A stretch of DNA of 64,000 bases from a virus. The notes under the pieces are model-generated. The model made no database searches. It had not been told where the DNA came from and saw nothing but the letters and a program-made list of their open reading frames with translations. The stretch lies in the IMG/VR virus record IMGVR_UViG_3300022743_000002, positions 23,751 through 87,750 of that record; one strand, written 5' to 3'. The first letter of the stretch is position 1; the number at the start of each line of letters is the position of its first letter. Positions 3,001 through 17,061 of the stretch are shown one piece after another. Made by a program: the position numbers and the translations under genes.

Positions 3001-4798
3001 TGCGCAGGTAAATGACGTCGGTAGTCACCTCGGTATGGCTGTGCTCGAATGCCGTGTTTGGCATGCGTTGCGCGCCAAGGAATTCCCCCTTGGTTAGCAG
3101 ACGCTCACGCAGGCTACGATTGGTCTTGCTGTCCATGATGCCGGTTGGCACCACCAGGGCGACAATGCCGCCGGGCTTGCACTTATCCAGCGCGGTATCG
3201 GTGAAGTAGGCCTCAGCCGTGCTGATATCTTTCTTGTCGTCCTTAGCCAGGAAGCCGCGCGGACCATAGGGCGGGTTTCCAATGACAACGTCGAACTGGC
3301 GATCGTCGGACGTTGCGAAGCGCTCCAGGCTGGCTGTATGGATTTCGTGGCGGTCGCCGTGCAGGGCCGTGGCTGCGGCCGCGCTGGTGGGATCGAGCTC
3401 CACGCCGGTGACCTTGAAGCCAGCCGGCGCAGTGTGCAGGAAAACGCCGGTAGCGCAGCTCGGCTCCAGGGCGGTACCGCCGGTGACGCCCAGAGCGGCG
3501 ATTGCCGTCCACATGCCGCGCGCCACTTCGGGATCCGTGTAGAACTCATTCAAGCTGTCGCCGCAGCCACCATTGCCGCTGTACTGGCGGAACAGAGCGC
3601 GGTCGGCGTCGCTGTACGGGCCACCGTCGGCCAAGCGCTTCACCACATCGGAATTGATGGCGAGGCGCTTTTTCTTGCTGGTGCCGGCCGGTACGCCGAA
3701 TGGCGCTGTGGGGTCGTGGGGCACTACGAGGACGGGCGCGGGCTTATTTTCGACTTCGGCAGGTTTTGCCGGCTGTGTTTGCACTTTTTCTGCAGAAACA
3801 GTCTTTATTTTCCCCGCCTTCGCATCACGCTTATCTCGCCGGCGCTTGAGCTCAGCGTCGATTGCGTCGACGTCAACTTGCATTGAGTTGATCAGCGCAG
3901 TATTGACGGATCCGCCATCCCAGCCCTTGCGTTTTTCGGCTGCGATCTTTTGCGCGCCATAGTTGGATGCGCGCTCCAGGTCTTTGGTGCCTTCGCGCAC
4001 CAGATCGGCAGCCGACAGATTGACAATGCGGTCGTAGTGTTCCCGCCACTCGCGGTGCGACCTATCCTGATCGGACTCATCAACCTCGCGGGCTGGCTTG
4101 ACCTCAGCCTTTGGCGGCTTGACCGGCTCGGGCTTTGCCGGCGCGCGATGCTTCAGCGTCATATCAGACGCCATGCGCCTCACCGTTGCGCCAACCTTGA
4201 AAGCCGTGCGAGGTGGAACCTCAAGCACTGAAGTGGTCACAAGGTCGTCGTATCTGTGCTCGCTCACGAGCGCCGTGATTTCTTTCCCGACCCTGTCCTT
4301 GAAGGTAACCACATCGCCAGGCTGGAACTTCGCCCTGGACGGTTTCGACTCCTGCACTGGCGCCTTGTCCGCAAACAGATCCGGCGTCTCGCCCTTCTCC
4401 GGCTCCTTTTCCGCCACGGCATCGAACATGGCCGACACTTCAGCGGGAGTTTTTCCGGCCAGCTTCGCCATTTCAGCGAATAGAGCCTGCTGCTGTCCTT
4501 CGGAAAGACCGGCGATTGTGGAACCAAGCAAGCGCAGGCCGCCATGGCGGGCGATGAATGCGTCCAGCTTGGAGCGCTTTACTGCCGGCGCTGGAGCATT
4601 GTGCTCGGCAAACATATCCAGCGTAGCGTGGTGCGCCGGCGCCGGTGCGCGCTTTACCGACACTTTCTGGATGCGCACATGGGCATCGACTAACGCGCCA
4701 TCTTTGCGGACATGGGCCGCAACGTGGACGGGCGCGTCAAACAGATTGAATTGGGATTTGGTAAAAAAGATGAGCATGTGACAGCCTTCTGGGAGCAT
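1..4798 (-). CDS. Giant DarB-like protein: N6-adenine methyltransferase plus SNF2/SF2 helicase (3' end beyond the left edge)
   Basis: Manual translation (absent from the ORF track because it has no stop in the window): MLIFFTKS at 4777, with an in-frame ATG at 4798. MTase motifs EFYT, LEPSCATGVF, FDVVIGNPPY. Helicase motifs IIADDVGLGKT, VIVAPKS, GIDMLIADEMH, LTATP. Confidence 0.88.
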   Translation of the reverse strand, partial: MLPEGCHMLIFFTKSQFNLFDAPVHVAAHVRKDGALVDAHVRIQKVSVKRAPAPAHHATLDMFAEHNAPAPAVKRSKLDAFIARHGGLRLLGSTIAGLSEGQQQALFAEMAKLAGKTPAEVSAMFDAVAEKEPEKGETPDLFADKAPVQESKPSRAKFQPGDVVTFKDRVGKEITALVSEHRYDDLVTTSVLEVPPRTAFKVGATVRRMASDMTLKHRAPAKPEPVKPPKAEVKPAREVDESDQDRSHREWREHYDRIVNLSAADLVREGTKDLERASNYGAQKIAAEKRKGWDGGSVNTALINSMQVDVDAIDAELKRRRDKRDAKAGKIKTVSAEKVQTQPAKPAEVENKPAPVLVVPHDPTAPFGVPAGTSKKKRLAINSDVVKRLADGGPYSDADRALFRQYSGNGGCGDSLNEFYTDPEVARGMWTAIAALGVTGGTALEPSCATGVFLHTAPAGFKVTGVELDPTSAAAATALHGDRHEIHTASLERFATSDDRQFDVVIGNPPYGPRGFLAKDDKKDISTAEAYFTDTALDKCKPGGIVALVVPTGIMDSKTNRSLRERLLTKGEFLGAQRMPNTAFEHSHTEVTTDVIYLRKRPDDVAGALGTVDQATLQKLGVWDAEFISGEYFTGRGASNVLGTMTEGWRAKAGMGNDITVEGSMDGVADAIADFTPESESAPAISVTMHHILGALGDDQKAKDRALSAAFRRPYANIAKVGDTKVVDGVTYVLQGDPPRWHSVDEYMQTAAISDAEALGVEIEMAKRGVVRDGLADRVRAYVEKHGNPNDSVDVKTAANVNKIIFNLLGAVNRKGELSDLVTGTVRKTESGFDATAQALALQHNGDTFDAAELADRLGKTVDEVEDQLAADQRYAFAVGGWTTMDAYLTGDLWLRLDAAKKELETNAHPELADKLRLQIERLEKTIDPKSLDDVDIQVNSAFIPTHILSEFMTWKLHDGPDANDWTKKERAIDVKFDSGVYFITGGNSYSTEYKALNAYLNRGTKDAKMMKEYRPVIDALNVEFKDWLCASAHRDAIEEKYNRSFRGFVAPEYSNEPIEVPGLNPNKSVRDWRWSSLRRSLATGKGIIADDVGLGKTLGGLLLARMAKVQGTTKRPVIVAPKSVLANWYSETQDWFPGSKVLTIGANFAKDKDGMLVGVDDTADERKRKYHDMTQNDYDFVIISEPSFEEIDITPERKEQYYSEDFWVQRGDKLDNVGDKRRKAIKENFEQSVAQREFSERTNAVYFEDLGIDMLIADEMHHQKNLYSARARFGDQPKFLGGQGLSNRALDFNMKARWIRETNGGKNVHGLTATPTKNSPLEVYSMLSHIAPEAFERIGIRNSEEFLDRFCEFVPDKVLSTKGDIEDATVVAGFKNMDELREIMSRYIDRRTAAEVGLKLPSRDDRMHLVDMTRAQQDAYAELRELAEESSGKKDATGDSHIFSIMDKMHKAALDLSILDPVRYAGAESPKYKELAKQCLEGAKEGGQIVFSELIESHDKIVAALVDAGFKKSEIGIINADVAKSSVKRQNIADKLNAGIFKVVIGNCTMAEGLNMQKTTTDIHHMDVPWDPATLQQRNGRGLRQGNNKEAVRIHTYL

Positions 4799-4804
4799 CC
4801 CCAG

Positions 4805-4820
4805 AGGGTAGCGTCACGAT
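4805..4820 (-). promoter_or_regulatory. Putative late promoter ATCGTGA-CGC-TACCCT
   Basis: Copy of the 11-member motif; ATG at 4798 follows 6 nt after the hexamer. Confidence 0.75.
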
Positions 4821-4822
4821 GC

Positions 4823-7153
4823 TCAGCGCGGCGCCAGGAATACTACAGGCATAGACTTTGTAATGTCTGGATTAGAGCCATCGAACTCGCCATTGTTGCC
4901 GATAGCCGATTTGATCTGCGTCGGATCAAAAACGACGTACTCAGCGGGGTAGTCACCGTTCTGGATGTGCCCGTAGCTCAAAATTACACCGTCGTGGCCC
5001 TTGGCGGCCAGTTCCTGCGTCCACTTCGCGGCAGCTTCATTGTCACCGCGGCGCTCGGCGAGCATCAGCCGCTGCTTGTCTTCCAGTGTGGCCTGATACG
5101 GGTTCTTTAGGCTCAGGTAGACAGGCATCACGTTGGGTGACGCGCCAGCCTTGAGGTTGGTGTAGCTGTTGGAGATTTCGGTGTCGTTGGTGAAGTAGAA
5201 GCCCTGACCGAGCCAGCCGTTGTCTTTTTTGTTGGCGTGGCCGTGCTTGAACTCAGCGAAGTCATCAGCGGTTCCGTGATAAACGATCAACGGCTTACCA
5301 TTCCCGTCAACCACTTTACTGCCTCGAAACCAGGTCTTGAACTTCGCGGTTTCGGTTGGATGCTGGAGCGCGGCCGGCTTCGGGGCCAGTCCAGCAGCCA
5401 CAGCCTGCAACGCCTTCCTGGGGTCTACAAACTCCAATTTGGTGCCCATGTCGGTGTGACCGACGCGGATCAGGCTCTTGATGTGCGGGCGCACGGCGTG
5501 TGACGTGATGCCGAACACCTCGGCGGCCGCTGGAATGAACCACTTGAGCCCAGATGAGCCAGCTTTCAGGCCTAGCCGATTTAGGTCCATATCCGTGACT
5601 TCGCCGCCGGCCATCAACCGATCGCGCATGGCGGCCAGCGCGGTGGCGCGATCGGCCTTGTTTTTGGCGGAACTCTCGCGGTTCGATAGCCACTGCTTGC
5701 CCTGCGCCGCAGCATCCTCCGGCTTCGCGTGGTACGCGCTCAAAATATCTTTGCCCGGGAGCTCGACCGCGTAGTGGCCAGCGATTAGCCCTTTGCCGCG
5801 CGACCAGGTTGTGCCCTCGGGGAAATCGGACAGCAGGTGGTCGTGCTCGTGCTCGCCCGCGGGCTCGGTGTGCTGGAGCTCGTCGGCGAACATATCTGGC
5901 GTGTGAGTTACCGCGTCCTTGCCGTTCAGCGGGCTCGGCCCCATCGGTTTGCCGCTCATGGGGCCGCCAAATAGGCTCATTTGCCCGGGCGTAGCATGCG
6001 GGCGCGCAGATCGACCCTGATACCCAGCGACGTTCACCAGACGACCGCCACGCAGGTACGGGCCAACATGGGATTTGAAGAACAAGACCATGCTCTTGGC
6101 GATGGTGGCGCCGCCGGCCGTACCTCGGCTTTCCACGCCGTTGTCGTCGTTGAACTTCTTGGCGACCTTGATCAACTCCATCGCCGGCATGCCGATCTTG
6201 ATGATGGGTAGCTGCTTGCCTTCGAGCGCAGCGACGGCCCAGCGGTGGTGACCGTCGAGCACGCGATTGTCGGACGACACCAGAATGCGGGTTTTGGCGT
6301 CGTACCGGCCCGCCCGCGTCTCGTCCGTCAGGTAGTCCATATTGGCGGCGTTGTAGGTGCCCTGGGTCGGCTTCAGTTCGGACGGGTTCACCGTGGCCTC
6401 GGTCACGGAAACACCTGACTCACGCAGCCCGTTCAAGAACTTTTCTTTCACGCCGCTCGGAACCTGGGGCATGTCATCCCGGCGGATGCCAAGCGACGGC
6501 TTGAACATTTCCGCGTACTGCTGGTGCCGCTGGCGCTTGTCTTCGTGGGCCTGCACCACAGTTCCATCGGAGCGGGTGTAGGTATCGACGTGGGCCTTCA
6601 GCAGCAGCGCCTTGATCATGGCAGGCTTGTCGATCGTGGCGCGCACCTTGGAAACGAACTCGGCCACCGGCATGGCGGTGATGGGGCCCAGGAAACGCGG
6701 GTCGGTGTAGTTGGCCAGAAATGCCTGCTTGGCGTCTTCCTCGCTATCGAACCCGGCCATGGCCTTGTCTTCATCGTAGCGGGTCCAGTCGCCATAGGTG
6801 TTCTGGTGCACCACGTAGACCATGGGCGCGTCCGGGTTCGGGCCCATGTAGATATCGACCGGGTCACCATCCACGCCCATGGATCCGACCACCTCGCCGT
6901 AGTCGTAGGACATGCGGATTTCCCAGGCCTCGCCGGACCGGTTCACGCCGCGGCGCACGGATCCCGCCGGATTCTCAATTGCCAGCGTCAGTCCCTGCCA
7001 TTCGATGCGTGGCTTCTTGTAGGCGCCCTCGCCGGCCTGGGCGGCACTGGGCTCGCCGGGGTTTCGGCGAACTTCGCCTTCCCCCAGGTCGGCAGGCTTG
7101 GCGGCGCCGCTCATTGCCTGTGTGACGGGGTGGGATTTGAGGAAAACGATCAC
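4823..7153 (-). CDS. Polyvalent protein: inorganic-pyrophosphatase-like + ParB-like + ADP-ribosyltransferase (ART-PolyVal-like) domains
   Basis: YG...GVDGDPVDIY...YDEDKAMAGFDS (PPase-like); LKPTQ...ILVSSDNRVLDGHHRW (ParB/Srx); WFRGSKVVDGNGKPLIVYHGT...GFYFT...VYLSLKNP...GHDGV...EYVVFDPTQIKS (ART). Confidence 0.82.
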   Translation of the reverse strand: MIVFLKSHPVTQAMSGAAKPADLGEGEVRRNPGEPSAAQAGEGAYKKPRIEWQGLTLAIENPAGSVRRGVNRSGEAWEIRMSYDYGEVVGSMGVDGDPVDIYMGPNPDAPMVYVVHQNTYGDWTRYDEDKAMAGFDSEEDAKQAFLANYTDPRFLGPITAMPVAEFVSKVRATIDKPAMIKALLLKAHVDTYTRSDGTVVQAHEDKRQRHQQYAEMFKPSLGIRRDDMPQVPSGVKEKFLNGLRESGVSVTEATVNPSELKPTQGTYNAANMDYLTDETRAGRYDAKTRILVSSDNRVLDGHHRWAVAALEGKQLPIIKIGMPAMELIKVAKKFNDDNGVESRGTAGGATIAKSMVLFFKSHVGPYLRGGRLVNVAGYQGRSARPHATPGQMSLFGGPMSGKPMGPSPLNGKDAVTHTPDMFADELQHTEPAGEHEHDHLLSDFPEGTTWSRGKGLIAGHYAVELPGKDILSAYHAKPEDAAAQGKQWLSNRESSAKNKADRATALAAMRDRLMAGGEVTDMDLNRLGLKAGSSGLKWFIPAAAEVFGITSHAVRPHIKSLIRVGHTDMGTKLEFVDPRKALQAVAAGLAPKPAALQHPTETAKFKTWFRGSKVVDGNGKPLIVYHGTADDFAEFKHGHANKKDNGWLGQGFYFTNDTEISNSYTNLKAGASPNVMPVYLSLKNPYQATLEDKQRLMLAERRGDNEAAAKWTQELAAKGHDGVILSYGHIQNGDYPAEYVVFDPTQIKSAIGNNGEFDGSNPDITKSMPVVFLAPR

Positions 7154-8310
7154 TTTGGTTCCTTGCGCGGCATGGCCGCCAGCTTGTCACGCATCCATTG
7201 CCCGAACTCCACATCGTCACCTGGCCGGTCCTGAATCGTCGGAACCCAGCGCCCACGGCAATGCGGGTGCACCAGGCCGACTGGCACCTGCCACATCTCC
7301 TCGGGCTCGCGCTCCTTGAACACGGACCCCACGCGCTTGCGTGGGCTGGCGCTTCGCCCAACGTTGGTTTTGCCCGGCCAAATCATGGTCTCCGGGTCCT
7401 TGTCCTCGCGGGCGGCGTCCACGACTTCCATGACGCGGCCGTCGATTTTGCGACAGAACGCACAGGCGTTTTTGTACTGCTCGACACGCTTGACCTTGGT
7501 GCCCATGGGTAGAGACGACACGTAGCCGGCGGTCTGTGCTTCGCCGGCCTCGGTCACGGCGATCCGCCGCCAGTCGCGGTTCAGCGTGCCGAACTGGTCG
7601 AGGAGCTTGGTCTCCAGACTCGACGACGGTGCCGGCAGTCCGAGCTCGCGCTCCGTGACGTGCTCGGCAATGACGCCACGCATGCGGTGCCGGACGTCAT
7701 TGGCGATGTTGCGGACATTCTCGGCACAGCGGGTTTCAGCGTGAGCCATGGTAGCGCGCTGTGCGACGGTGCCGCCAAACGCCGCAATGGCCTCAGCGGC
7801 CGTGCTCGGCATGGCCGCCAGCAGCACGTCGGCCTGCTTGGCGTCGGCGGCCTCCATGTTGGCCTGCACGCGCCCCATGAGGCTGGCACGTGTCGACAAC
7901 CAGTCGGCCTCGGTGCGCATGTCGTCTGCAGGCAGGTAGCGCTGCACCGTCGCGTCGACGGCAAGCATGTGGTCTTCCAGCGTCCAATCGGACGGCGGGA
8001 GGTGTTCGAGGTAGATATGGACCAGAGAGAGCTCGCTTTGCGTCCATCGCTCCATCATGCCGCCAGGGCGAATGATGCGCTCGCCGGGCTTGTGTCGGAC
8101 GCCGGCGGTCCAGGCCTGAATCTCGGTGCGCACGGCGTCAAGGCGATCGAGACCGCGCTGCGTGAAAAGCTCGACCAGGCGACGCAGCAACGGGCTATCC
8201 ATTGGCGCCCAGATGCCGTCGTCGTGGTCATGCGTGGACTTGCACAGGAACTCCAGAGCGTCGTTTGTGACGCGCTCACCAAGTTCAATTAAATCGACGA
8301 ACAAAGACAT
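7150..8310 (-). CDS. MuF/SPP1 gp7-like head morphogenesis protein
   Basis: RDWRRIAVTE, CAFC and HPHCRG motifs; lies downstream of the portal. Confidence 0.75.
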   Translation of the reverse strand: MSLFVDLIELGERVTNDALEFLCKSTHDHDDGIWAPMDSPLLRRLVELFTQRGLDRLDAVRTEIQAWTAGVRHKPGERIIRPGGMMERWTQSELSLVHIYLEHLPPSDWTLEDHMLAVDATVQRYLPADDMRTEADWLSTRASLMGRVQANMEAADAKQADVLLAAMPSTAAEAIAAFGGTVAQRATMAHAETRCAENVRNIANDVRHRMRGVIAEHVTERELGLPAPSSSLETKLLDQFGTLNRDWRRIAVTEAGEAQTAGYVSSLPMGTKVKRVEQYKNACAFCRKIDGRVMEVVDAAREDKDPETMIWPGKTNVGRSASPRKRVGSVFKEREPEEMWQVPVGLVHPHCRGRWVPTIQDRPGDDVEFGQWMRDKLAAMPRKEPK

Positions 8311-8316
8311 GCTGGC

Positions 8317-8332
8317 AGTATGCGATCACGAC
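8317..8332 (-). promoter_or_regulatory. Putative late promoter GTCGTGA-TCG-CATACT
   Basis: Motif copy; ATG at 8310 follows after 6 nt. Confidence 0.75.
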
Positions 8333-8333
8333 G

Positions 8334-8502
8334 AAAAGCCGGAGCGGTTTCCAGCCCCGGCGATCCGGCGCGACCCTGGCACGGCGCGTAAACGCCGGAA
8401 AGGAACCGACCTCCAACCCTCAATGGACGTCGGCGCCATGTCGCGCTGCGGCCTTTATATCCCGAATGAACCGCAAACGGTCACGCTCAAGCCAACACTA
8501 AC
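8334..8502 (-). ncRNA. Candidate late non-coding RNA (about 170 nt)
   Basis: Own motif promoter at 8509-8524, no credible ORF, ends in a GC hairpin followed by TTTT. Confidence 0.45.
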
Positions 8503-8508
8503 AATGGC

Positions 8509-8524
8509 AGTGTGCAGTCACGAC
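8509..8524 (-). promoter_or_regulatory. Putative late promoter GTCGTGA-CTG-CACACT
   Basis: Motif copy directly after a terminator; no start codon at +1. Confidence 0.7.
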
Positions 8525-8550
8525 AAAAAAACCCGGCACAAGGCCGGGTT
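8525..8550 (-). terminator. Intrinsic terminator of the portal-SAS-SAH operon
   Basis: AACCCGGC-cttgt-GCCGGGTT-TTTTT on the minus strand. Confidence 0.85.
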
Positions 8551-8842
8551 AAAAGCTCCGACCCAGGGAGGAAAGGCCGGCCACTTGCGTGGGGGTTGAT
8601 GGCGGCCGAAGGTGATCACCCTGCTATCGACCGGGAACCCCCAGCCGTTCGGCATCTTCGCCATCAAGAATGAGACCTTACCACTGGCTGCATCCGCGTT
8701 TAAGTAGATACACCATAATCTCATACTTGATGACCCTGCAAGCAGGCATCAAGGGCACCTAACGGGTACCAGTCGACGTGATTAAGTGCCGTCGCACGGA
8801 GTTGTCTACTCAGGTCCGAAAACTAATTCTAATCACAAATAA
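8551..8842 (-). ncRNA. Structured long 3' UTR or candidate ncRNA
   Basis: Consecutive stems: TTGATGGCG/CGCCATCAA, ATGAGA/TCTCAT, CTTGATG/CATCAAG. Confidence 0.4.
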
Positions 8843-9439
8843 CTATATTTGTGCAATGCCGCGCAAATATATTTCATCAAAAATAGCATCGAGTACGGGG
8901 TGACGCTGGCTCATGGCCGTTACCACCTGGCGCGCATCGCTGTAATACTTGCGCTTTCTGTCTGCGCCCCAAGCCGGTGGCATAACCAGCAGGTCCCGCA
9001 AGTTAGCAGTCTTGTCTGCCACCTTCACGGCGGCCGCCCTGGGGCTCATGGTTTGCGCGTGGGCTACCTGCATCGCCAGCTTGTCTTCGGGCTTCACGTC
9101 TTCGTTCGTGAGCTCCGCCACGGCGTCGGCAACGTCATGACCAAATTCAGCCACCAGGTTTTCGTGGCTGACGCCGCAGTCCTCAATGGTGTCGTGCAGC
9201 AGAGCCGTGATCAGCGTGGCGTCATCGGTGACGCCAGCCTCATCGTGCAGGATTCGGGCGACTGCGCGCGGGTGTTCGATGTAGGGAACCTTGGGCGCGC
9301 CAGGCTGGCCCTTGCGGTACTGGCCGGTGTGGGCCCGCTCCGCGAACTTGTCGGCGCGCCTGACGTGAGGGGAAACGTAAACGCCATTGCGGCGGGTATG
9401 GCCCGCCACATGAACCGTTGATTTGAACAAGAGGATCAC
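8843..9439 (-). CDS. HD-domain small alarmone hydrolase (Mesh1/SpoT-HD family) with an N-terminal KS tag
   Basis: AHTGQYRK...PYIEHP...ALLHDTIED...FG..VA..V.ELT...VKVADKTANLRD. Confidence 0.88.
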   Translation of the reverse strand: MILLFKSTVHVAGHTRRNGVYVSPHVRRADKFAERAHTGQYRKGQPGAPKVPYIEHPRAVARILHDEAGVTDDATLITALLHDTIEDCGVSHENLVAEFGHDVADAVAELTNEDVKPEDKLAMQVAHAQTMSPRAAAVKVADKTANLRDLLVMPPAWGADRKRKYYSDARQVVTAMSQRHPVLDAIFDEIYLRGIAQI

Positions 9440-9648
9440 GCCTGATCCCTGGTCTCGGCCTTTTGTTCACCCATGTAGGGCTTCACTTCGTCGAGGGTCA
9501 TGGGGTTGCTCAGCCTACGTACCCTGTCGACGTCGCCTTCGTAGGGCTTCCATTGGCCGGTCCGCTCTAGGTAGACCTCCATCTTGCCGCCGGCATCCCG
9601 GAAAACAGCCCCCTCGACCTCAAAATACTGCTCAGTTCCCATTTTCAC
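9436..9648 (-). CDS. 70-aa hypothetical protein, candidate antitoxin or regulator of the synthetase
   Basis: Overlaps both neighbouring genes; the function is inferred from position only. Confidence 0.7.
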   Translation of the reverse strand: MKMGTEQYFEVEGAVFRDAGGKMEVYLERTGQWKPYEGDVDRVRRLSNPMTLDEVKPYMGEQKAETRDQA

Positions 9649-11230
9649 GCCCCTTCAAATTCCACAAGATCATTCTAGGCGTTGGCATAGATTTAGTCAA
9701 ATTTGATGATTCATTCTGTTGTTGTTTCTCACCAGCCTTAGCTTTCTCCCAGGCATCACCGTAGAGAGACTCCTGCTCTTTCATGGCGGCGGCGTGCGTC
9801 TCACGGTCCTTGGCGTCCCATTTGCTTGTATCTGAGCCAACGCCATTCTCGCGATATTTACCTTCTATTGATCGCGTTGTCTCGTATGGCTTGTGGCCTT
9901 TTTCCTTGGCCAGCGTCATTGGCTTCACGTGCACCTGCATCTCGGCGAGCATGCCGTTGGGTAGCCGCATGATCATGTTGATATCGCGGTAGCCGCCCGG
10001 CAATGGCTTGACCAGGTTGTTCTTGGGCTTCTGCGCCAGCTCGATGCCGGCCGCCTTGAGCTCGGCGAGCACCTTCGGGATTTGGGTGACGCCAGGCACT
10101 GCGATTGTGGCGCGCACCATGTCGCGCAGCTGCGACCAGTCGCCGTCGTAGTCCTGGGCGACCTTCTCCTTGGCGCGCTTCTCGCCCTTGAGCGGGCCCA
10201 TGAACAGGTAGCCGCGATCGTCGTCCCAGTGCTCGGGCAGCATGTAGTCGGTGTCGGACAGGTCGGCCGGATTGCGGCCTTCCTTCTCGGCGTTGATCTT
10301 CTCCTCGTGCTGGGCGTGGTCCAGCGACTGCGGGCGCTTGCCGGTCACCAGACCAAGATTCTGCGCGACCTTGCTGAGCATATCGCTGTACTGCTTCAGG
10401 CCTTCCTCGCCCTTGGACTTCAGTTCATCCCATGACTGGACAGGCTGATTGACCTTGGTCGGCAGCTTATCGAGCTCTGAGGTATCGAATAGCGCGCGAG
10501 CGATCCCCTCGGCGCCGTCGGGGGCCGGCTTTGGCGTTCCCGGCGCGTCTACCTGGTTGGGTTGCGTCTCCTGGTGCGGACTCGCGTCCGGCTTACCTTC
10601 GCCGCCCCAGTGGTGGGTAATTTTGTCATGCGTTACAAGGTGTTGGCCACCGGCGCTGTCCCGGACACGCACGCCGTCCTTGCCGGATGCCGTTACCTCG
10701 CCGTGCCCCTTGTGCTCGCCATTGGCAAAGCCGACGTGCTGGCCGCGCTGGGCCGGCGGGCTACCCTGGTCAGTGCTGACCCACTTGGTAGTTTGAACGC
10801 CATTCTTATCAGTGATTACCTTCTTTTGCAGACCGGGTGCACCAGCGTAGGTTCCCGGCGCTGACGCCTTCATAAATAGCATGACGGGCCGCGTGTGCCC
10901 CATTGATTTAGCGACCATTGGGTCTTCCTTGGATTCGTTTGGTATTGCCACAAATCGACGCCGGCCGGACTTGTCCTCGACCAGCATGCCATCCTCTCCT
11001 TGATCGACGACGGCGTATTTTTGCAGGGCCCGGGTCTTGTGACCAAGGACCTTGTCCCATCGGACCGGGTGATGGCCGCCGTCAATCTCGACGGTTACGC
11101 CGTGCTTTCCGTGCGCCTTGACCAAGCCGGTGCGCGGTTGTCCGCGGTGGTGCACATACAGATGGTCGCCCACCTCGACGTCGTGGCGCGGCTCCGGCTC
11201 CGGGCGCGGCTTAGGCTTCTGGTAGGTCAT
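9632..11230 (-). CDS. Multidomain protein with a C-terminal RelA/SpoT-type small alarmone synthetase (nucleotidyltransferase) domain
   Basis: GPLKGEKRAKEK, QLRDMVRATI, GGYRDIN and AEMQVH match the four RSH synthetase motifs; ATGA-coupled to the portal stop. Confidence 0.82.
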   Translation of the reverse strand: MTYQKPKPRPEPEPRHDVEVGDHLYVHHRGQPRTGLVKAHGKHGVTVEIDGGHHPVRWDKVLGHKTRALQKYAVVDQGEDGMLVEDKSGRRRFVAIPNESKEDPMVAKSMGHTRPVMLFMKASAPGTYAGAPGLQKKVITDKNGVQTTKWVSTDQGSPPAQRGQHVGFANGEHKGHGEVTASGKDGVRVRDSAGGQHLVTHDKITHHWGGEGKPDASPHQETQPNQVDAPGTPKPAPDGAEGIARALFDTSELDKLPTKVNQPVQSWDELKSKGEEGLKQYSDMLSKVAQNLGLVTGKRPQSLDHAQHEEKINAEKEGRNPADLSDTDYMLPEHWDDDRGYLFMGPLKGEKRAKEKVAQDYDGDWSQLRDMVRATIAVPGVTQIPKVLAELKAAGIELAQKPKNNLVKPLPGGYRDINMIMRLPNGMLAEMQVHVKPMTLAKEKGHKPYETTRSIEGKYRENGVGSDTSKWDAKDRETHAAAMKEQESLYGDAWEKAKAGEKQQQNESSNLTKSMPTPRMILWNLKGRENGN

Positions 11231-12972
11231 GATTGAATTCTGAACACCGGCAGGCCAAACGACTTGGCTATGTCCTGCTGATCATCTCCGGGCCTCTCCG
11301 TAGCCCCAGCATCATCGGGCGCCCCGAAGTCTTGCCCGCCCTGATCGTCACCAAAATCCTGATCGCCGCCGCCGTCATCGCCGTCATCGGTCGACTGCCC
11401 AGGCTCAGCGCCAGGCTGGCCGTAGTCCTCTTGCTGCGGCATTGCCTCTTGTTGCCAGGCGCCAACCAGCGAGGGATTCAATGGAGCGTCACCCCACTTA
11501 CCGTCGGCCTTGTCGACGCCGTCCTCGGCTCGGATCTCGTTGACGGTGCGCGTCATTTTTTTGCGCTCCCAGATCGTCTTTTCGTCTTCCTCGTCCAGGC
11601 CGGTGAACTGGAATTCGTACTTGTCACTGAACTCGCCAATGACGTACTCGCTCAGCGTGGACTCGAAATAGCTCAGCAGGGGGCGCAGGCCCTTGTCTTT
11701 GCTGTTGACGATCTTCTCCTCGGTGTCGTCTCCGCTCAGCGATGACGTTCCGGACGTGAAGCTCTCAAAATTGATTTCCTCGGGCGCAATGCCGTAGATC
11801 GCGCAGATGATGGATGACAAGAACGTCATCCACTTGGCGAACATGATTTCGTTGGCGGCGTTACCGAATTCCGTGAAGTCGGCTTTCGACTCCTGATCCT
11901 TGGACACCATGACGGGCAGCGTCCAGGCGTTATTGACGCCCTTGACCATGCCGTTCCAGTAGCGCTTAAAGGCGGCAACATCCTCGTCGCTGTAGTTTCC
12001 GTACAGGTTCAGCATGCCCTTGGGTATGGCGTTGCTGTCGAAAAATTTGGTGTTGTAGGTGAAGGCGTTCAGAAAGCCCGTCACCACGCGGATAAGCAGT
12101 TCCGTCTCGGACAGTCCGTAGCCGCCAGCAAGCACGTCGGTGCGTGGGTTGCGCGGCACATACACCAGGTCGTCATAGGTGTAGGCGCTGCGGATCTGGC
12201 CTTGCACGACCTGGAGGGCGAAAATCTCGTCTTCGCCTTGGTAGCCGTCTTCGCTGCACAACCGAATGGTGGCTCCGTCGACGGCGTACATGCCGTCCAG
12301 GCCGAGCGACTTGTCGCGCTTCCACTCGGTCTCAATCGGTGCGCTGTCCATGGTGAGGCTGTCGCGCACCAGCTTCATCATGAAGTTTTGGAAGTTGTCG
12401 CGCTTCAGGCGCAGGCGCTGGCGGGGCTTGGTCTCCCAGCCGCTGTTGGTCACGAATGACTCCAGCAGCTTAATGGTGGCCTTTTCGTTTTCGTCGATGT
12501 TCTCCAGCTTTTCCTTGCTGGCGATCCTGAAACCCGACCCCTTGCCACCCTTCTGCGGCCGGCAAAACCTGGCCACCTGGCGCTGGCGCGTCATTATGAC
12601 GGCGTTCAAAATCGGCGTTTGGTCCACCATGGCGCGCATGGCATCAAACGTGAATTGGCCGGGTCGCTCGAACCAGTCGCCGTTGATGTTGATCTGCAGG
12701 TCGTCCAGCCAGACCGACTGCATGCCGGGCTTCTTGTCTTTGATGGCATTCGACGGGAACGGGATGACGTTCTGCTTTTGCAGCGACTTCGCCATGGCCT
12801 GATCGTCCAGGTCACGGTTGATGTAGTCAATGATGGGCTGAATGTTCGCCGCCGGTATCAGGTCCGACAACGCCTTGGGCATGCTGGATTTTTGAAGCTC
12901 CGCCATGGCTTCAGTCCGCTCGTCGGCGGGCGCACGTGGATCAGCGAGTATGGCGCGGGCAGCATCAGTCAT
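11227..12972 (-). CDS. Portal protein
   Basis: 581 aa; AVDGATIR, RNPRTD...YGLS..E, FFDSNAIPKGML, ICAIYGIAPEEI, GLRPLL, TVNEIR; acidic C-terminal tail. Confidence 0.9.
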   Translation of the reverse strand: MTDAARAILADPRAPADERTEAMAELQKSSMPKALSDLIPAANIQPIIDYINRDLDDQAMAKSLQKQNVIPFPSNAIKDKKPGMQSVWLDDLQININGDWFERPGQFTFDAMRAMVDQTPILNAVIMTRQRQVARFCRPQKGGKGSGFRIASKEKLENIDENEKATIKLLESFVTNSGWETKPRQRLRLKRDNFQNFMMKLVRDSLTMDSAPIETEWKRDKSLGLDGMYAVDGATIRLCSEDGYQGEDEIFALQVVQGQIRSAYTYDDLVYVPRNPRTDVLAGGYGLSETELLIRVVTGFLNAFTYNTKFFDSNAIPKGMLNLYGNYSDEDVAAFKRYWNGMVKGVNNAWTLPVMVSKDQESKADFTEFGNAANEIMFAKWMTFLSSIICAIYGIAPEEINFESFTSGTSSLSGDDTEEKIVNSKDKGLRPLLSYFESTLSEYVIGEFSDKYEFQFTGLDEEDEKTIWERKKMTRTVNEIRAEDGVDKADGKWGDAPLNPSLVGAWQQEAMPQQEDYGQPGAEPGQSTDDGDDGGGDQDFGDDQGGQDFGAPDDAGATERPGDDQQDIAKSFGLPVFRIQS

Positions 12973-12978
12973 GCCTGA

Positions 12979-12994
12979 AGGGTAACGTCACGAC
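12979..12994 (-). promoter_or_regulatory. Putative late promoter GTCGTGA-CGT-TACCCT
   Basis: Motif copy; portal ATG follows after 6 nt. Confidence 0.75.
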
Positions 12995-13012
12995 ATTTTT
13001 TATCCCGGAGTG

Positions 13013-13042
13013 TTGCTTATTTTTGAGTAATGGCATTAGAAT
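13013..13042 (+). promoter_or_regulatory. Sigma70-like promoter TTGCTT-18-TAGAAT
   Basis: Precedes AAGGAG and the ATG at 13067. Confidence 0.55.
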
Positions 13043-13066
13043 TCGTCAACATTCACAAGGAGTTTT

Positions 13067-13309
13067 ATGCACACACCCGAACAAGCCAAAGGCCTTTGGT
13101 GCCCAATGGTGCGTATTGCGCGCCGCGAAGACCCGGACCCGAATGCCCGCACCACCGTCGTCGCAGGCTGCAACACCGACGCCCTTGGCAAGGTCCGCGT
13201 ACCCGCGTCCTGCCGCTGCATCGCCAACGAGTGCGCGATGTGGCGCTGGGCGGATGGTCCGGACGGCCTGGGGTACTGCGGGCTGGCTCCGCTACCCAAA
13301 ACTGATTAG
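13067..13309 (+). CDS. Cys-rich hypothetical phage protein
   Basis: Good SD; WCPM...CIANECAMWRW...GYCGLA. Confidence 0.75.
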   Translation: MHTPEQAKGLWCPMVRIARREDPDPNARTTVVAGCNTDALGKVRVPASCRCIANECAMWRWADGPDGLGYCGLAPLPKTD

Positions 13310-13396
13310 CAAGCTGTTTTTATTTTGTATTTCCCCAGTGAAACTCTGGAGACGCCAATATCCCGGGCGCGAGTCGGGCGCAAATTACCTACCATC

Positions 13397-14308
13397 ATGT
13401 TTAAGAACGCAAGTGTTTTCAAAATCAAACTAACCCAGCACGCGCTGACGCAGACACTGAACGACGCCGCTGGCCGCGCACTTTTCCTGCCATGCTACCC
13501 AACTCAGGAGCGCTCAGTCGGCTGGGTTTCACCACGCGGCCATGAGCACGGCCCGCTGGTGGAGAACATTGGCGGGCACCTGATCATGCGCTTGATGATC
13601 GAAACCAAGACGGTGCCAACCCAGGCCATCGATGACGCCGTGGCTGCCAAGGTCAAGAAGATCGAGGAGACCACCGGACGCAAGCCCGGCAAGAAGGAAA
13701 TGAGCGAGCTCAAGTCAGACGCGCGCCTGGCTTTGCTGCCAAACGCATTCGCGCAGCGCGCTGCCGTCTTTGTTTGGATTGACCGGGAAAACGGTCGGCT
13801 GGTGCTGGACGCCGCCGGCCAGAACCGCGTCGACGAGGTCGCCACGCAGCTAATCAAGCTGGTGGACGGCGTCGTCATCGGGTTCCTGACTACCCAGACG
13901 TCGCCGGCTGCCGCCATGACGATGTGGCTCAATGACCACGACGCACTCGCCAGAGACTTCAGCATTGGCCGGTCCGCCACGCTCAAGGCTACCGACGAGA
14001 GCAAGGCGGTCGTGCGTTACACACGCCACGGGCTGGACACCGACGAGGTCCGCCAGCATATCGCCCAGGGCAAGATAGCGACCAAGCTGGCGCTGACGTA
14101 TCGCGATCGCGTGGCTTTCACGCTGACTGACGGCGGAGTGCTGACTGGGCTCGAATTCCTTGACTCCGTATTCGAGGAGCGCGCCGACACGGCCGCCGAC
14201 AGCTTTGACGCCGACGTCGCCATTCTCACCGGGGAGTTGTCCAGGCTGATCCCTGACCTGGTCGAGGAAATGGGCGGGGAGTTCGATGAAGAAGGCGGCG
14301 CAGCATGA
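13397..14308 (+). CDS. rdgC: Recombination-associated protein RdgC
   Basis: MFKNA start; GWVSP, ETKTVP, LLPNAF, FDADVAILTGEL, EMGGE; about 303 aa. Confidence 0.93.
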   Translation: MFKNASVFKIKLTQHALTQTLNDAAGRALFLPCYPTQERSVGWVSPRGHEHGPLVENIGGHLIMRLMIETKTVPTQAIDDAVAAKVKKIEETTGRKPGKKEMSELKSDARLALLPNAFAQRAAVFVWIDRENGRLVLDAAGQNRVDEVATQLIKLVDGVVIGFLTTQTSPAAAMTMWLNDHDALARDFSIGRSATLKATDESKAVVRYTRHGLDTDEVRQHIAQGKIATKLALTYRDRVAFTLTDGGVLTGLEFLDSVFEERADTAADSFDADVAILTGELSRLIPDLVEEMGGEFDEEGGAA

Positions 14309-14520
14309 GTGAATCGGAGATTGAATCGCTTCGCTCTCGCGTGAGGGAATTATGCAACCTCGTCCGAAAGGTGCACAAAGCCAAGGGCCGATACCACACC
14401 CAGCTGGCGATGTGCGACCTGTTTGACTCCGTGGGTCTGCCTAGTGAGCGCCCAGAGAAGGATGGCGCGAGCGCGCGCGAACACAATCGCCCCGACGACA
14501 CTGAGGGCGGGAAAATATGA
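14305..14520 (+). CDS. Hypothetical protein
   Basis: ATGA coupling on both sides. Confidence 0.7.
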   Translation: MSESEIESLRSRVRELCNLVRKVHKAKGRYHTQLAMCDLFDSVGLPSERPEKDGASAREHNRPDDTEGGKI

Positions 14521-15041
14521 TCACCTACAAGACCCAACCAGGAACCATACCCCATCGAGCGGTCGCGTATCTGCGAACTTTGCCACCGGGAACGCAAAAA
14601 AGTACCGCAGAGCTGGCGCACGCCATTGACGCGGACCCGGAAACCATTGTGTTCACCATGCGCCCAGCGCGAGATGCCGGGATGGTCAATGCCGAATACG
14701 TGCCTGGCGACAAACGACGACTGTACTGGAGTCTTGGCAATGGATTGCAGCAGCCAACACCGGCCGAACAACCCGATAAGCAGCCCGCGCCTACACGCGA
14801 GGCGGCCAAACCAAAAGCGAAAAAAGAACCAAAAGCCGCGCCACCGGAAAGCTCCGAATTAGACGCCAACCCGCCGACGGCAGTAAAAACAAAGAGGACG
14901 CGAACCCCGAGGCTTCGCCGCAATTTCCGCGTTGGGTGGTTCACCGATGGCACGGCACATATTGAGATAGGGCAACATAAATTCGTCCTGGACAGCGTCG
15001 AGACGGCGGCCATCGCGGACATTTTCAAGAGGTTGAAATGA
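14517..15041 (+). CDS. Hypothetical protein with an N-terminal winged-HTH-like region
   Basis: STAELAHAID...; translationally coupled. Confidence 0.65.
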   Translation: MITYKTQPGTIPHRAVAYLRTLPPGTQKSTAELAHAIDADPETIVFTMRPARDAGMVNAEYVPGDKRRLYWSLGNGLQQPTPAEQPDKQPAPTREAAKPKAKKEPKAAPPESSELDANPPTAVKTKRTRTPRLRRNFRVGWFTDGTAHIEIGQHKFVLDSVETAAIADIFKRLK

Positions 15042-15322
15042 TTGAACCAATCAAGGCCGGCGACATGGCCGAAGTCGTTGGTGGCCTGGGCAGGGCCAAA
15101 AGCCCGAACCTTGGGCTGATCGTTACCGTCGTGTCATTCCAGGGCGAGCATAGCCAGCATGGCCGGATATGGCGCTGCAAGTCGCCGCACCTTCAGCAAC
15201 TTGGCGATGCCGGGCAGTATGTAATCGCCGGATGGGCTGACCTGGCTCAATCATGGCTTCGCAAGATTGAGCCGCCAAAGTTCAAAACCGCCACGTCGGC
15301 GAAGCTCGAAGCCAGTCATTAA
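15038..15322 (+). CDS. Hypothetical protein
   Basis: ATGA coupling; IKAGDMAEVV...LRKI pattern. Confidence 0.7.
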   Translation: MIEPIKAGDMAEVVGGLGRAKSPNLGLIVTVVSFQGEHSQHGRIWRCKSPHLQQLGDAGQYVIAGWADLAQSWLRKIEPPKFKTATSAKLEASH

Positions 15323-15366
15323 ATTACGCCGCCGGGTGCGTTACCCGGATTTTCTAGGAGACTCCA

Positions 15367-15642
15367 ATGAATAAGACACAACTGATTGCAGCCGTCGCAT
15401 CAGACACAAACCTGAGCACCGAAGATGCTCGCAAAGCCGTCGATGCTGTAATTTCCAACCTATCGTCCGGCATGAGGAACGGGGACACCGTTACCATTCA
15501 TGGCTTTGGCTCGTTCAGCGCAGCAGACAAAGCCGCACGCATGGGTCGCAACCCAAACACCGGACAGGCGACAGAGATTGCCGCCCGCAAGGCGCCGCGA
15601 TTCAAACCAAGCGCAGCGCTCAAGGCTGCTCTAAACGCCTGA
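15367..15642 (+). CDS. hup: HU-family histone-like DNA-binding protein
   Basis: MNKTQLI...GFGSF...GRNPNTG...PRFKPSAALK. Confidence 0.95.
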   Translation: MNKTQLIAAVASDTNLSTEDARKAVDAVISNLSSGMRNGDTVTIHGFGSFSAADKAARMGRNPNTGQATEIAARKAPRFKPSAALKAALNA

Positions 15643-15736
15643 TTTCGCACCCTCCCACATCAAATTTACATGCCTGGCTTGCAAAAAGCTCAAGACCGGT
15701 ATATTCGCCCTCCCCGAAGCGACGCGGGGAGGGGAA

Positions 15737-16582
15737 ATGGGCTCGTCAATTCAATACAAACCAGGCACAAAGAGACGCGACGCCAGGCTTGGTGATGTTC
15801 ATGTGCACGTATTTGAAGACGCCATCGGAATAGATTCAATCGTCGTACCAGAGCACTCCATTTTTATTCTGGCTCGCGGCGTTTCGATGGTCGACATTTT
15901 AGAATCCGGTGAGCTACCAAGGCACACATACGGAGCTGGGTCCATCAGGTTTCTCCCGGCTGGCACACACCTATCGTCGGTCGATGTTTCTGCGCCCTAC
16001 ACAGAGACGATGATCCGCGTTCCGGAAAGCGCGTTCCGCCAGGCCGCCCGCGACAAAATTTGCTACAACTCACTGCAGTGGAGCTTTGTGAGGGCGCCAG
16101 CTGAGAAGACGTTCGGCGTCGCCCAAACGCTAGCCAATGTAGCCATGGCTGAGAATCCATCCCCGCTGTTTGTAGACGCCGTAATCAATGCGCTTTGCAT
16201 TGGCGTCATGTGCACCAACATGGACCGGACCTATGAGGCCACGCGCCAAGTTCCGGGCGGGCTGTCGCCAGAGCGGCAGCGTCGCGTCGTCGAATTCATT
16301 GAGAAAAACCTATCGGAGACAATCACGCTATCCGACGTGGCTCATGTCGCCGCGCTGAGCCCGTTCCATTTCAACCGGGCATTCCGCGCATCGATGGGCA
16401 CAACGCCATCGAGGTATGTCATGTCCATGCGGGCGTTAAGAGCCAAGCGGATGCTGTGCGACCGCACAATGCAAATCGCCTGCGTAGCGATGGAGTGCGG
16501 ATTCAGCAACCAAAGCCATTTCACCACGGCCTTTAAGAAGGCAACCGGGATGACGCCGGCAGAGTGGCGCCGCAATAACTGA
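15737..16582 (+). CDS. AraC-family transcriptional regulator
   Basis: LSDVAHVAALSPFHFNRAFR...VAMECGFSNQSHFTTAFKKATGMTPAEWR. Confidence 0.92.
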   Translation: MGSSIQYKPGTKRRDARLGDVHVHVFEDAIGIDSIVVPEHSIFILARGVSMVDILESGELPRHTYGAGSIRFLPAGTHLSSVDVSAPYTETMIRVPESAFRQAARDKICYNSLQWSFVRAPAEKTFGVAQTLANVAMAENPSPLFVDAVINALCIGVMCTNMDRTYEATRQVPGGLSPERQRRVVEFIEKNLSETITLSDVAHVAALSPFHFNRAFRASMGTTPSRYVMSMRALRAKRMLCDRTMQIACVAMECGFSNQSHFTTAFKKATGMTPAEWRRNN

Positions 16583-16670
16583 GTCACAAGCTGTTTTATA
16601 TGTGACGCCAAGTTCGCGCCACCATTAGCTTTTCGCGTGTTTTCCGTTTTCTCGTGTGATAGCCGGGCGC

Positions 16671-17039
16671 TTATCGGGCGCCAGTTACGCGCTTTTCACC
16701 GTCGTATTTTGCCTTTGCGTCCTTCAGCGGCTGCTGGCGCTTCTTTAGCTCCATGTGCGCATAGTGCACCTCGTCGATGTACTGTCCGCCCTTTTTGTCG
16801 TTGCCCATTGCGTAGGCGTGCTTGGCCGCCTCTTTGGCATCCTTGATCACGTAATGGAGCTGGTCTTCGCTGTAGGTCGCAAATTTGCCCTGGGTCCGGC
16901 TGTGCCAGTTTTCCTCGTCGCGCCAGTCTTTTTTTGGTTTGGCGGCCTGCCGCTTGTCGTCATGCGCACCCACAACGGAGCCGTCCTTGCGCGTGAACGT
17001 ATCAATGTGCGACTTGAAAAATAGGGCGAGTGCTTTCAT
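16671..17039 (-). CDS. Small KS-tagged protein, candidate internal head protein
   Basis: MKALALFFKSHIDTFTRKDGSVVGAHDDKR closely matches an internal segment of 4823..7153; has its own late promoter. Confidence 0.8.
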   Translation of the reverse strand: MKALALFFKSHIDTFTRKDGSVVGAHDDKRQAAKPKKDWRDEENWHSRTQGKFATYSEDQLHYVIKDAKEAAKHAYAMGNDKKGGQYIDEVHYAHMELKKRQQPLKDAKAKYDGEKRVTGAR

Positions 17040-17045
17040 TCCCGC

Positions 17046-17061
17046 ATTTTGCGATCACGAC
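17046..17061 (-). promoter_or_regulatory. Putative late promoter GTCGTGA-TCG-CAAAAT
   Basis: Motif copy whose TGA is the terL stop codon; ATG follows after 6 nt. Confidence 0.75.

Follow-up and report, generated by a model that had tools for sequence, protein, structure and literature searches.

The window analysed here spans 64,000 bases (23751-87750) of the 87,750-bp phage genome IMGVR_UViG_3300022743_000002 from IMG/VR. In the late genes of its minus strand it carries a recurrent short peptide tag, a hydrophobic strand bordered by Lys-Ser or Lys-Ala (K-[S/A]) that is attached to a series of unrelated proteins. Gene calls made for this analysis on the whole genome give 86 genes. On the minus strand, the late order runs from the terminase (17055-19175, a GpA terminase in Pfam) through a 122-amino-acid (aa) open reading frame (ORF), a plus-strand insert, the portal gene and a 532-aa synthetase to a 70-aa ORF, an HD hydrolase, a MuF-like protein, a 776-aa polyvalent protein and a DarB-like protein. 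Past the window start follow a Ulx-like protein, a 1518-aa helicase, the maturation protease, the scaffold and the major capsid protein. The genes of the window that concern us are the following:

2-4777, minus strand: DarB-like N6-methylase/SNF2 helicase, 2195 aa in the genome, its C-terminal part lying outside the window (Pfam N6_Mtase, Eco57I, SNF2-rel_dom, Helicase_C)
4823-7153, minus strand: polyvalent protein, 776 aa, with InPase, a DGHHR (ParB-like) segment, a folded middle domain and ART-PolyVal (Pfam and AlphaFold2, AF2)
7150-8310, minus strand: MuF-like head protein, 386 aa, a conserved gene after the portal in all relatives
8843-9439, minus strand: HD_4 (SpoT/Mesh1-like) hydrolase (Pfam HD_4)
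9632-11230, minus strand: Tas1-like RelA/SpoT-type synthetase, 532 aa (PDB 6ox6, (p)ppApp synthetase Tas1, E 1e-7)
11227-12972, minus strand: portal protein (Pfam Phage_portal)
16671-17039, minus strand: 122-aa protein with tag, basic hairpin and three-helix bundle (translation and AF2)

Among cultured phages the nearest relatives are Bordetella phage PHB04, Aeromonas phage ST4, Pseudomonas phage Dolphis and Yersinia phage fHe-Yen8-01. The portal and capsid proteins show a more distant likeness to their Herelleviridae counterparts, with tblastn matches of the portal in Staphylococcus, Bacillus and Listeria phages. The maturation protease belongs to PHROG 1028 (E 3e-34), and the gene directly downstream of the DarB-like gene to PHROG 1629, Ulx-like anti-restriction (E 8e-15). 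Pfam places InPase at residues 38-169 and ART-PolyVal at residues 616-757 of the polyvalent protein, a single polypeptide whose gene adjoins the MuF-like and portal genes. For the MuF-like protein there is no PHROG match and only a non-significant Pfam match (E 0.18); the same holds for the synthetase (no PHROG, Pfam E 0.25), and the scaffold and the 122-aa protein match nothing in Pfam or PHROGs. The initial annotation, made from the letters alone, had named these enzymes correctly: Pfam recovers InPase and ART-PolyVal, the N6-methylase with SNF2 helicase, HD_4 and the portal, and the Tas1 match accounts for the synthetase.

Two separate elements can be distinguished in the K-[S/A] peptides. 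The first is a cut-site-like h-x-K-[S/A] sequence (h, hydrophobic; x, any residue), and the second a strand unit of five aliphatic or aromatic residues followed by Lys or Arg, with the consensus h-h-h-F-h-K. Their positions are:

4754-4777, minus strand: DarB-like N-terminal tag MLIFFTKS (MLILFVKS, MLVFFTKS and MIILLTKA in relatives)
7133-7153, minus strand: polyvalent N-terminal tag VIVFLKS (MIVFLKS, MRFIFFKA and ILLLKS in orthologues)
6593-6622, minus strand: polyvalent internal junction tag AMIKALLLKA at the InPase/ParB-like border (translation)
6071-6103, minus strand: polyvalent internal junction tag IAKSMVLFFKS, comprising cut site, strand and cut site (kept as AMKSMVVFFKA and MIKALPLVLFLKA)
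4826-4864, minus strand: polyvalent C-terminal tag ITKSMPVVFLAPR (ITKSSIFLRGPES-stop and MTKSIIFMRRP-stop in relatives)
8236-8253, minus strand: MuF-like EFLCKS (kept as YIYKS, HIFKA and FMHKA)
9419-9439, minus strand: HD hydrolase N-terminal tag VILLFKS (VIVFLKA in PHB04)
10865-10915, minus strand: synthetase internal tag VAKSMGHTRPVMLFMKA (translation)
9635-9700, minus strand: synthetase C-terminal tag LTKSMPTPRMILW... (translation)
12784-12795, minus strand: portal N-terminal site MAKS (translation)
11230-11271, minus strand: portal C-terminal peptide IAKSFGLPVFRIQS ([AQ]K[SA]FGLPVF kept in 26 distinct relatives)
17010-17039, minus strand: tag MKALALFFKS of the 122-aa protein (translation)

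Just outside the window the 1518-aa helicase, also tagged, begins MLPKDRPILFLKAS, and an alternative start of the DarB-like protein at 4798 would give MLPEGCHMLIFFTKS. The N-terminus of the PHROG 20105 profile aligns with residues 354-400 of the polyvalent protein. Both synthetase tags are kept in about 15 relatives, the linker from cut site to strand being variable. Translation of the window places every K-[S/A] peptide listed in the initial annotation where it had been reported, and most of the proteins named there do share the tag. The MuF-like EFLCKS does not belong with them, being of the cut-site type without the full hydrophobic strand, and the portal FGLPVF peptide is a portal-specific variant, present too in relatives that have no cargo genes inserted beside the portal (cargo denoting here and below the tagged enzymes and the 122-aa protein).

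Most N-terminal and internal tags are followed by a basic hairpin (h-V-x-x-Y-T-R-x-D-G-x-x-V-x-x-H-x-R), for which no Pfam family was found and whose invariant residues in 23 homologues are T16, K18, G20, V23 and H26. It occurs in the window at:

4670-4753, minus strand: basic hairpin
6509-6592, minus strand: basic hairpin
9335-9418, minus strand: basic hairpin
16926-17009, minus strand: basic hairpin

The hairpin is also found without the strand, in tandem arrays of 3 to 6 units within Ser/Gly-rich metagenomic proteins (P0125, P0140, P0173, P0174, P0196), which marks it as an independent small repeat module. Structurally, the AF2 model of the 122-aa protein leaves residues 1-38 (tag and hairpin) unfolded, with a predicted local distance difference test score (pLDDT) of 47-59; a three-helix bundle follows (helices at 39-120, with pLDDT exceeding 90 from roughly residue 50 onward). 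In the polyprotein the confident domains cover residues 45-176 and 435-592, and all four tags lie outside them at pLDDT below 50.

The arrangement of the two elements follows a simple rule, in that K-[S/A] stands between strand and enzyme in every tag, be it at the N-terminus, at the C-terminus or internal. N-terminal tags read M-(0-12 residues)-strand-K[SA]-enzyme, C-terminal tags read enzyme-h-x-K[SA]-(0-9 residues)-strand-basic residue-(2-5 residues)-stop, and internal tags read enzyme-K[SA]-linker-strand-K[SA]-enzyme. For N-terminal tags this places the strand on the P side of the putative cut, for C-terminal tags on the P' side; a strand that can stand on either side of the bond to be cut is more than an extension of the protease recognition sequence. 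This layout fits what would be expected of a detachable peptide.

Statistical analysis reveals that the strand motif, scored as [LIVFMA][LIVFM]3-T?-K[SA] against 500 composition-preserving shuffles, is concentrated in few proteins. The proteome holds 8 copies versus 1.31 +/- 1.23 in the shuffles (maximum 7), all of them in six cargo-type proteins of the terminase-to-capsid block. Five proteins have the motif among their first 12 residues against 0.07 expected (maximum 2 in 2000 shuffles). The other ~75 proteins (tail, lysis, replication, regulators) contain none; the initial annotation had likewise not noticed it in the tail, lysis and replication proteins. The cut-site element is likewise unevenly spread: h-x-K-[SA] occurs 20 times in five head-assembly proteins (4.6 expected, reached in 0 of 1000 shuffles) and 25 times in the cargo proteins (15 expected, reached in 8 of 1000), and is not enriched in the remaining ~75 (38 versus 34.6 expected), a distribution that bears out the suggestion that the motif would not be equally frequent outside the head module. 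Chance or composition is ruled out by these shuffles. Codons differ among the eight tag copies, which indicates selection on the peptide rather than on the DNA and rules out a DNA-level repeat, recombination linker or promoter.

The cut-site element also recurs in the proteins that build the head. It is present in seven copies in the scaffold (206 aa) and further in the protease, at either end of the portal, at the N-terminus of the MuF-like protein and in the capsid N-arm (LQK27-A28), and these sites are kept in ST4, Dolphis, fHe-Yen8-01 and PHB04. The capsid protein is homologous to 9vel, 5lii and 9row (E 1e-20 to 4e-29), and a PDB sequence search aligns LQK27|A28 exactly with VVK24|S25 of the phi812-type capsid protein. 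The latter is deposited at its full length of 463 aa (...VVK24-S25FQTGYG...) and as a 439-aa mature form whose first residue is S25 (9row); SPO1 Gp6.1 has LNKA at the aligned position. The boundary between the 439-aa and 463-aa deposits implies a cut at K24|S25, and by alignment K27|A28 would be the site at which the capsid N-arm of this phage is removed, after Lys and before Ser/Ala. Homology and distribution together make a K|S/A cleavage code of the head protease well supported, giving a footing to the cleavage proposed when the tags were first noticed, and from this code the cutting of the cargo tags would be only a short step.

Among 44 IMG/VR relatives retrieved with the portal, strand tags number 45 on the portal strand (139.7k aa) versus 2 on the opposite strand (47k aa). 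Roughly 40 of these tags belong to proteins homologous to the synthetase, the HD, polyvalent, DarB-like and 122-aa proteins or the helicase, and ~5 on the portal strand lie on ORFs without such homology. In tagged homologues the strand and both lysine sites are constant and the linker between them is variable. In the deposited annotation of PHB04, five tags fall in the portal-to-scaffold block and one among 107 other coding sequences, so that a restriction of the tag to the head block holds there for all but one copy. The outlying copy belongs to ATI15667.1 (L001:9859-10614, plus strand), a 251-aa hypothetical protein that starts MSTVILFLKSHVAGYMRAGRYVKP with an N-terminal tag and hairpin and adds another cargo candidate from a cultured phage. 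The tagged ART and NUDIX genes of ST4 sit apart from its head genes, which indicates that the tag is tied to its cargo rather than to the locus.

Gene fusion and fission points coincide with the tags. InPase is a separate gene in PHB04, and there and in three metagenomic relatives it ends ...MIKALVLFLAARPAN-stop where the polyprotein has MIKALLLKA; the presence or absence of the ParB-like cassette is bounded exactly by two tags. Homologues of the 122-aa protein are 76-91% identical over their N-terminal 33 residues and unrelated in their C-terminal parts, near-identical modules on unrelated domains that agree with the portability claimed for the tag in the initial annotation. Longer proteins show the same tag grammar around Zeta-toxin/AAA_33, ART and GNAT domains.

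A wider family emerges from a tag-plus-hairpin profile of 40 positions, which was searched against 1.84 billion representatives (E up to 1e-3) and recovered 860 protein clusters with 1 to 6 copies per protein. The best 150 of the 860 clusters contain 72 N-terminal and 58 internal modules; 41 of these 58 are preceded by h-x-K-[SA] at a distance of up to 14 residues, and in most of the others a lysine directly abuts the strand. C-terminal tags are present on 31 of 120 wider-family proteins versus 2.1% of control windows. Pfam domains on tag-bearing proteins include InPase (29 of 83), ART-PolyVal (13), protein kinase, Acb1, PBECR3, PolyA_pol and GNAT. All three genomic contexts of tagged proteins that were fetched contain the same MuF-like/protease/scaffold/capsid module, with the portal where the stretch reached it. 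Tagged proteins of the P0064 type are found in no cultured phage records. Acb1 (PF23474), the nuclease domain that counters the cyclic-oligonucleotide-based anti-phage signalling system (CBASS), lies on P0072 and three other tag-plus-hairpin proteins, which suggests that in some phages Acb1 may reach the host ready-made inside the capsid.

Comparison with known head-packaging systems places the tags between several precedents. Proteases of the T4 family, including the P1 and phiKZ/SPN3US enzymes, cut after Glu, and the capsid targeting sequence (CTS) of T4 is known only at the N-terminus. On the injected T4 internal proteins IPI-III and Alt, the CTS is a short, movable terminal peptide that the prohead protease gp21 cuts off at its own consensus site (PMC9024508). 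Here a short peptide is shared by proteins whose head-internal location is predicted from gene context and from DarB/MuF/Ulx homology, and the flanks of the cargo tags match the h-x-K|[SA] sequence code of capsid protein, scaffold and protease. In contrast to T4, the predicted cut falls after Lys and before Ser/Ala, the five-residue hydrophobic strand occurs internally and at either terminus, and its sequence shows no similarity to that of the T4 CTS. In phage P1, the N-terminal 30 aa of DarB are a CTS sufficient for targeting, the capsid maturation cut is at E120|S121, and the Dar proteins have no common N-terminal consensus (PMC9024508). The window and its flank resemble P1 in encoding a giant DarB-type protein, N6-methylase with superfamily 2 (SF2) helicase, followed by a Ulx-like gene among head genes, and differ from it in that one consensus tag is common to six or more unrelated proteins. 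DarA, Hdf, DdrA and DdrB do not appear among the Pfam and PHROG matches of the scanned proteins, no dedicated search for them having been made.

The cargo genes also recall the polyvalent proteins. The paper of Iyer, Burroughs, Anand, de Souza and Aravind (2017) describes polyvalent proteins with InPase, ART-PolyVal, methylase-helicase and RelA/SpoT domains beside portal and MuF genes, predicts that they are packaged and injected, and proposes their processing via embedded zincin-like metallopeptidase domains; text searches of it gave no mention of a junction tag or a prohead-protease site (PMC5512222). The 776-aa protein agrees with this description in joining two effector domains, InPase and ART-PolyVal, next to the MuF-like and portal genes, whereas the cargo proteins here have no peptidase domain detectable by Pfam. 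With Herelleviridae-type heads the phage shares homologous capsid protein, portal and maturation protease and an aligned K|S/A site; the difference lies in the reuse of this site as a junction code on cargo enzymes, of which we found no description. To our knowledge, the K|S site of Herelleviridae is known only for capsid proteins. Encapsulin cargo-loading peptides are short, portable and terminal, dock enzymes inside an HK97-fold shell and are not known to be removed by a protease; they are an analogy only, with no sequence relationship to the phage tags. A literature search found no paper describing the strand-plus-K[SA] tag grammar.

We consider it somewhat probable that the tags serve as removable addresses on proteins that travel inside the capsid. 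The cargo (the DarB-like methylase/helicase, the 1518-aa helicase, the InPase/ParB-like/ART polyprotein, the Tas1-like synthetase, the HD hydrolase and the 122-aa protein) would be made late in infection as tagged precursors, each tag consisting of a strand followed by Lys/Arg and joined to its enzyme by h-x-K|(S/A), the presumed prohead protease site of the clade. The strand would dock on an interior component of the procapsid, most likely the scaffold or the capsid N-arm, and the cargo would co-assemble into the prohead. The protease that would remove the 27-residue capsid N-arm and shred the scaffold would also cut after the tag lysines, removing the strands and splitting polyproteins into single enzymes; these would be retained inside the head and delivered to the next host together with the DNA. 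In our analysis, a capsid-address role of the strand would be the best reading of the position rule taken together with the precedents of the T4 CTS and P1 DarB's N-terminal 30 residues. A broader proposal, that strand and K|S/A site form a position-independent, portable code for loading, separating and injecting interchangeable enzymes, is advanced more tentatively, as a possibility falling just short of an even chance.

Several observations weigh against an address function. The portal carries a related C-terminal peptide and yet has no need of a cargo address, so the strand may serve general assembly. The portal K[SA]-FGLPVF-R is kept in relatives without the cargo block, which suggests that the strand contacts a general interior partner, for example the scaffold; the cargo proteins may then imitate the contact of the portal with this general assembly partner. 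HD orthologues in two relatives (L054 and L055) lack the tag. The hairpin is better conserved than the strand and could be the real docking element. The 9row mature-form deposit supports K24|S25 as a sequence boundary only, and the AF2 evidence is weak, coming from shallow alignments and, for the polyprotein, a model with a mean pLDDT of 56.

The alternative that survives best, although we regard it as unlikely, is that the K-[S/A] sequences are true protease sites and the strand is not an address, the cargo being loaded by the hairpin or by partners (MuF-like, Ulx-like) as for P1 Dar, with the strand no more than a spacer, or a handle by which the site is offered to the protease. Strand and hairpin are equally conserved, in keeping with loading by the hairpin, and a Ulx-like gene is present, in keeping with loading by partners. 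Packaging of P1 DarB depends on other Dar proteins, a dependence that also speaks for partners. The lack of a consensus tag on the P1 Dar proteins (PMC9024508) points the same way. However, the C-terminal tags and several N-terminal ones (InPase, helicase) have the strand without such a hairpin adjacent, and the hairpin itself occurs in tandem repeats of unrelated, bacterial-looking proteins without any strand. A handle would, moreover, hardly be expected to switch from the P side in N-terminal tags to the P' side in C-terminal ones.

Two further explanations are decidedly improbable, each to a similar degree. In one, strand, K-S and hairpin would form an uncleaved three-stranded beta module that acts after injection by binding DNA or a host factor, K-S being a structural turn. 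Strand and hairpin are indeed contiguous and co-conserved over ~33 residues, and the unit recurs 1 to 6 times per protein in the 860 clusters, but AF2 leaves it unfolded (pLDDT 47-59), homology makes h-x-K-[SA] the capsid maturation site and the scaffold is saturated with it, a second K-[SA] precedes nearly all internal copies, and the C-terminal strands have no hairpin. In the other, the tags would be propeptides that keep toxic enzymes (ART, Tas1-like synthetase, kinase, nuclease) inactive until the head protease acts. This accords with the toxin-like character of several cargo domains (Tas1-like, Zeta toxin, ART, PBECR3) and with cut sites that match the head protease code, yet a single five-residue consensus strand is unlikely to inhibit a dozen unrelated folds, and the tag is also present on non-toxic proteins (InPase, the 122-aa helical protein) and, as a variant, on the portal. 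Such zymogen control would be compatible with an address function and would not replace it. A signal peptide or membrane anchor is ruled out by a strand of five residues that is also internal and C-terminal, and self-processing by a metallopeptidase by the absence of a peptidase domain in Pfam and by a sole HExxH string (HEHDH, residue 435) that is unconserved in relatives.

Injected phage proteins are known for few model phages only, and the P1 Dar proteins bear no recognisable signal. If the tags are indeed removable capsid addresses, sequence alone would predict injected effectors, including Acb1 anti-defence and alarmone-manipulating enzymes, and the ~860 tag-bearing clusters would amount to a catalogue of them (ART, kinases, Acb1, Tas1-like synthetases, nucleases). 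An address of this kind would also explain how giant polyvalent proteins without a peptidase domain are split into working enzymes and why domain cassettes shuffle exactly at conserved junctions. For laboratory work on phages and their hosts, it would further provide a minimal handle for packaging foreign proteins into phage heads of this clade.

Individual proteins of the block show additional features. Residues 1-105 of the synthetase (10916-11230, minus strand), ahead of its internal tag, correspond to a small separate gene that directly follows the portal in relatives without the synthetase (L027, L028, L030, L035, L037). This N-terminal domain of ~105 residues is probably a head-module protein to which a toxin-like enzyme has been fused at a tag.

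The DarB-like tag is followed by Q-[FL]-x-L-F-D-x-P (4730-4753, minus strand), which reads QFNLFDAP here and QLALFDAP in relatives (L010, L013, L014, L046, L059). The bacterial sliding-clamp binding motif is QL[SD]LF; QFNLFDAP resembles it, and a K|S cut would place it at the new N-terminus.

The maturation protease (L005:3546-4457, minus strand; genome 15546-16457, outside the window) holds in its C-terminal half a copy of the capsid N-arm just after the cut site, FAKA|LEAGYGTDSAALAGGSAMRVQSLD matching the capsid LQKA|LTAGYGTDVSGFAGGSALRIQSLD. This copy aligns weakly to the SPO1 Gp6.1 N-arm (E 0.06), is kept in relatives, and may be the route by which the protease is incorporated into the prohead.

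The plus-strand block between the terminase and portal operons (13397-16582) contains genes for RdgC (Pfam E 1e-87), for an HU-like protein and for an AraC-like regulator, and AraC-family genes near this position are also present in PHB04 and ST4.

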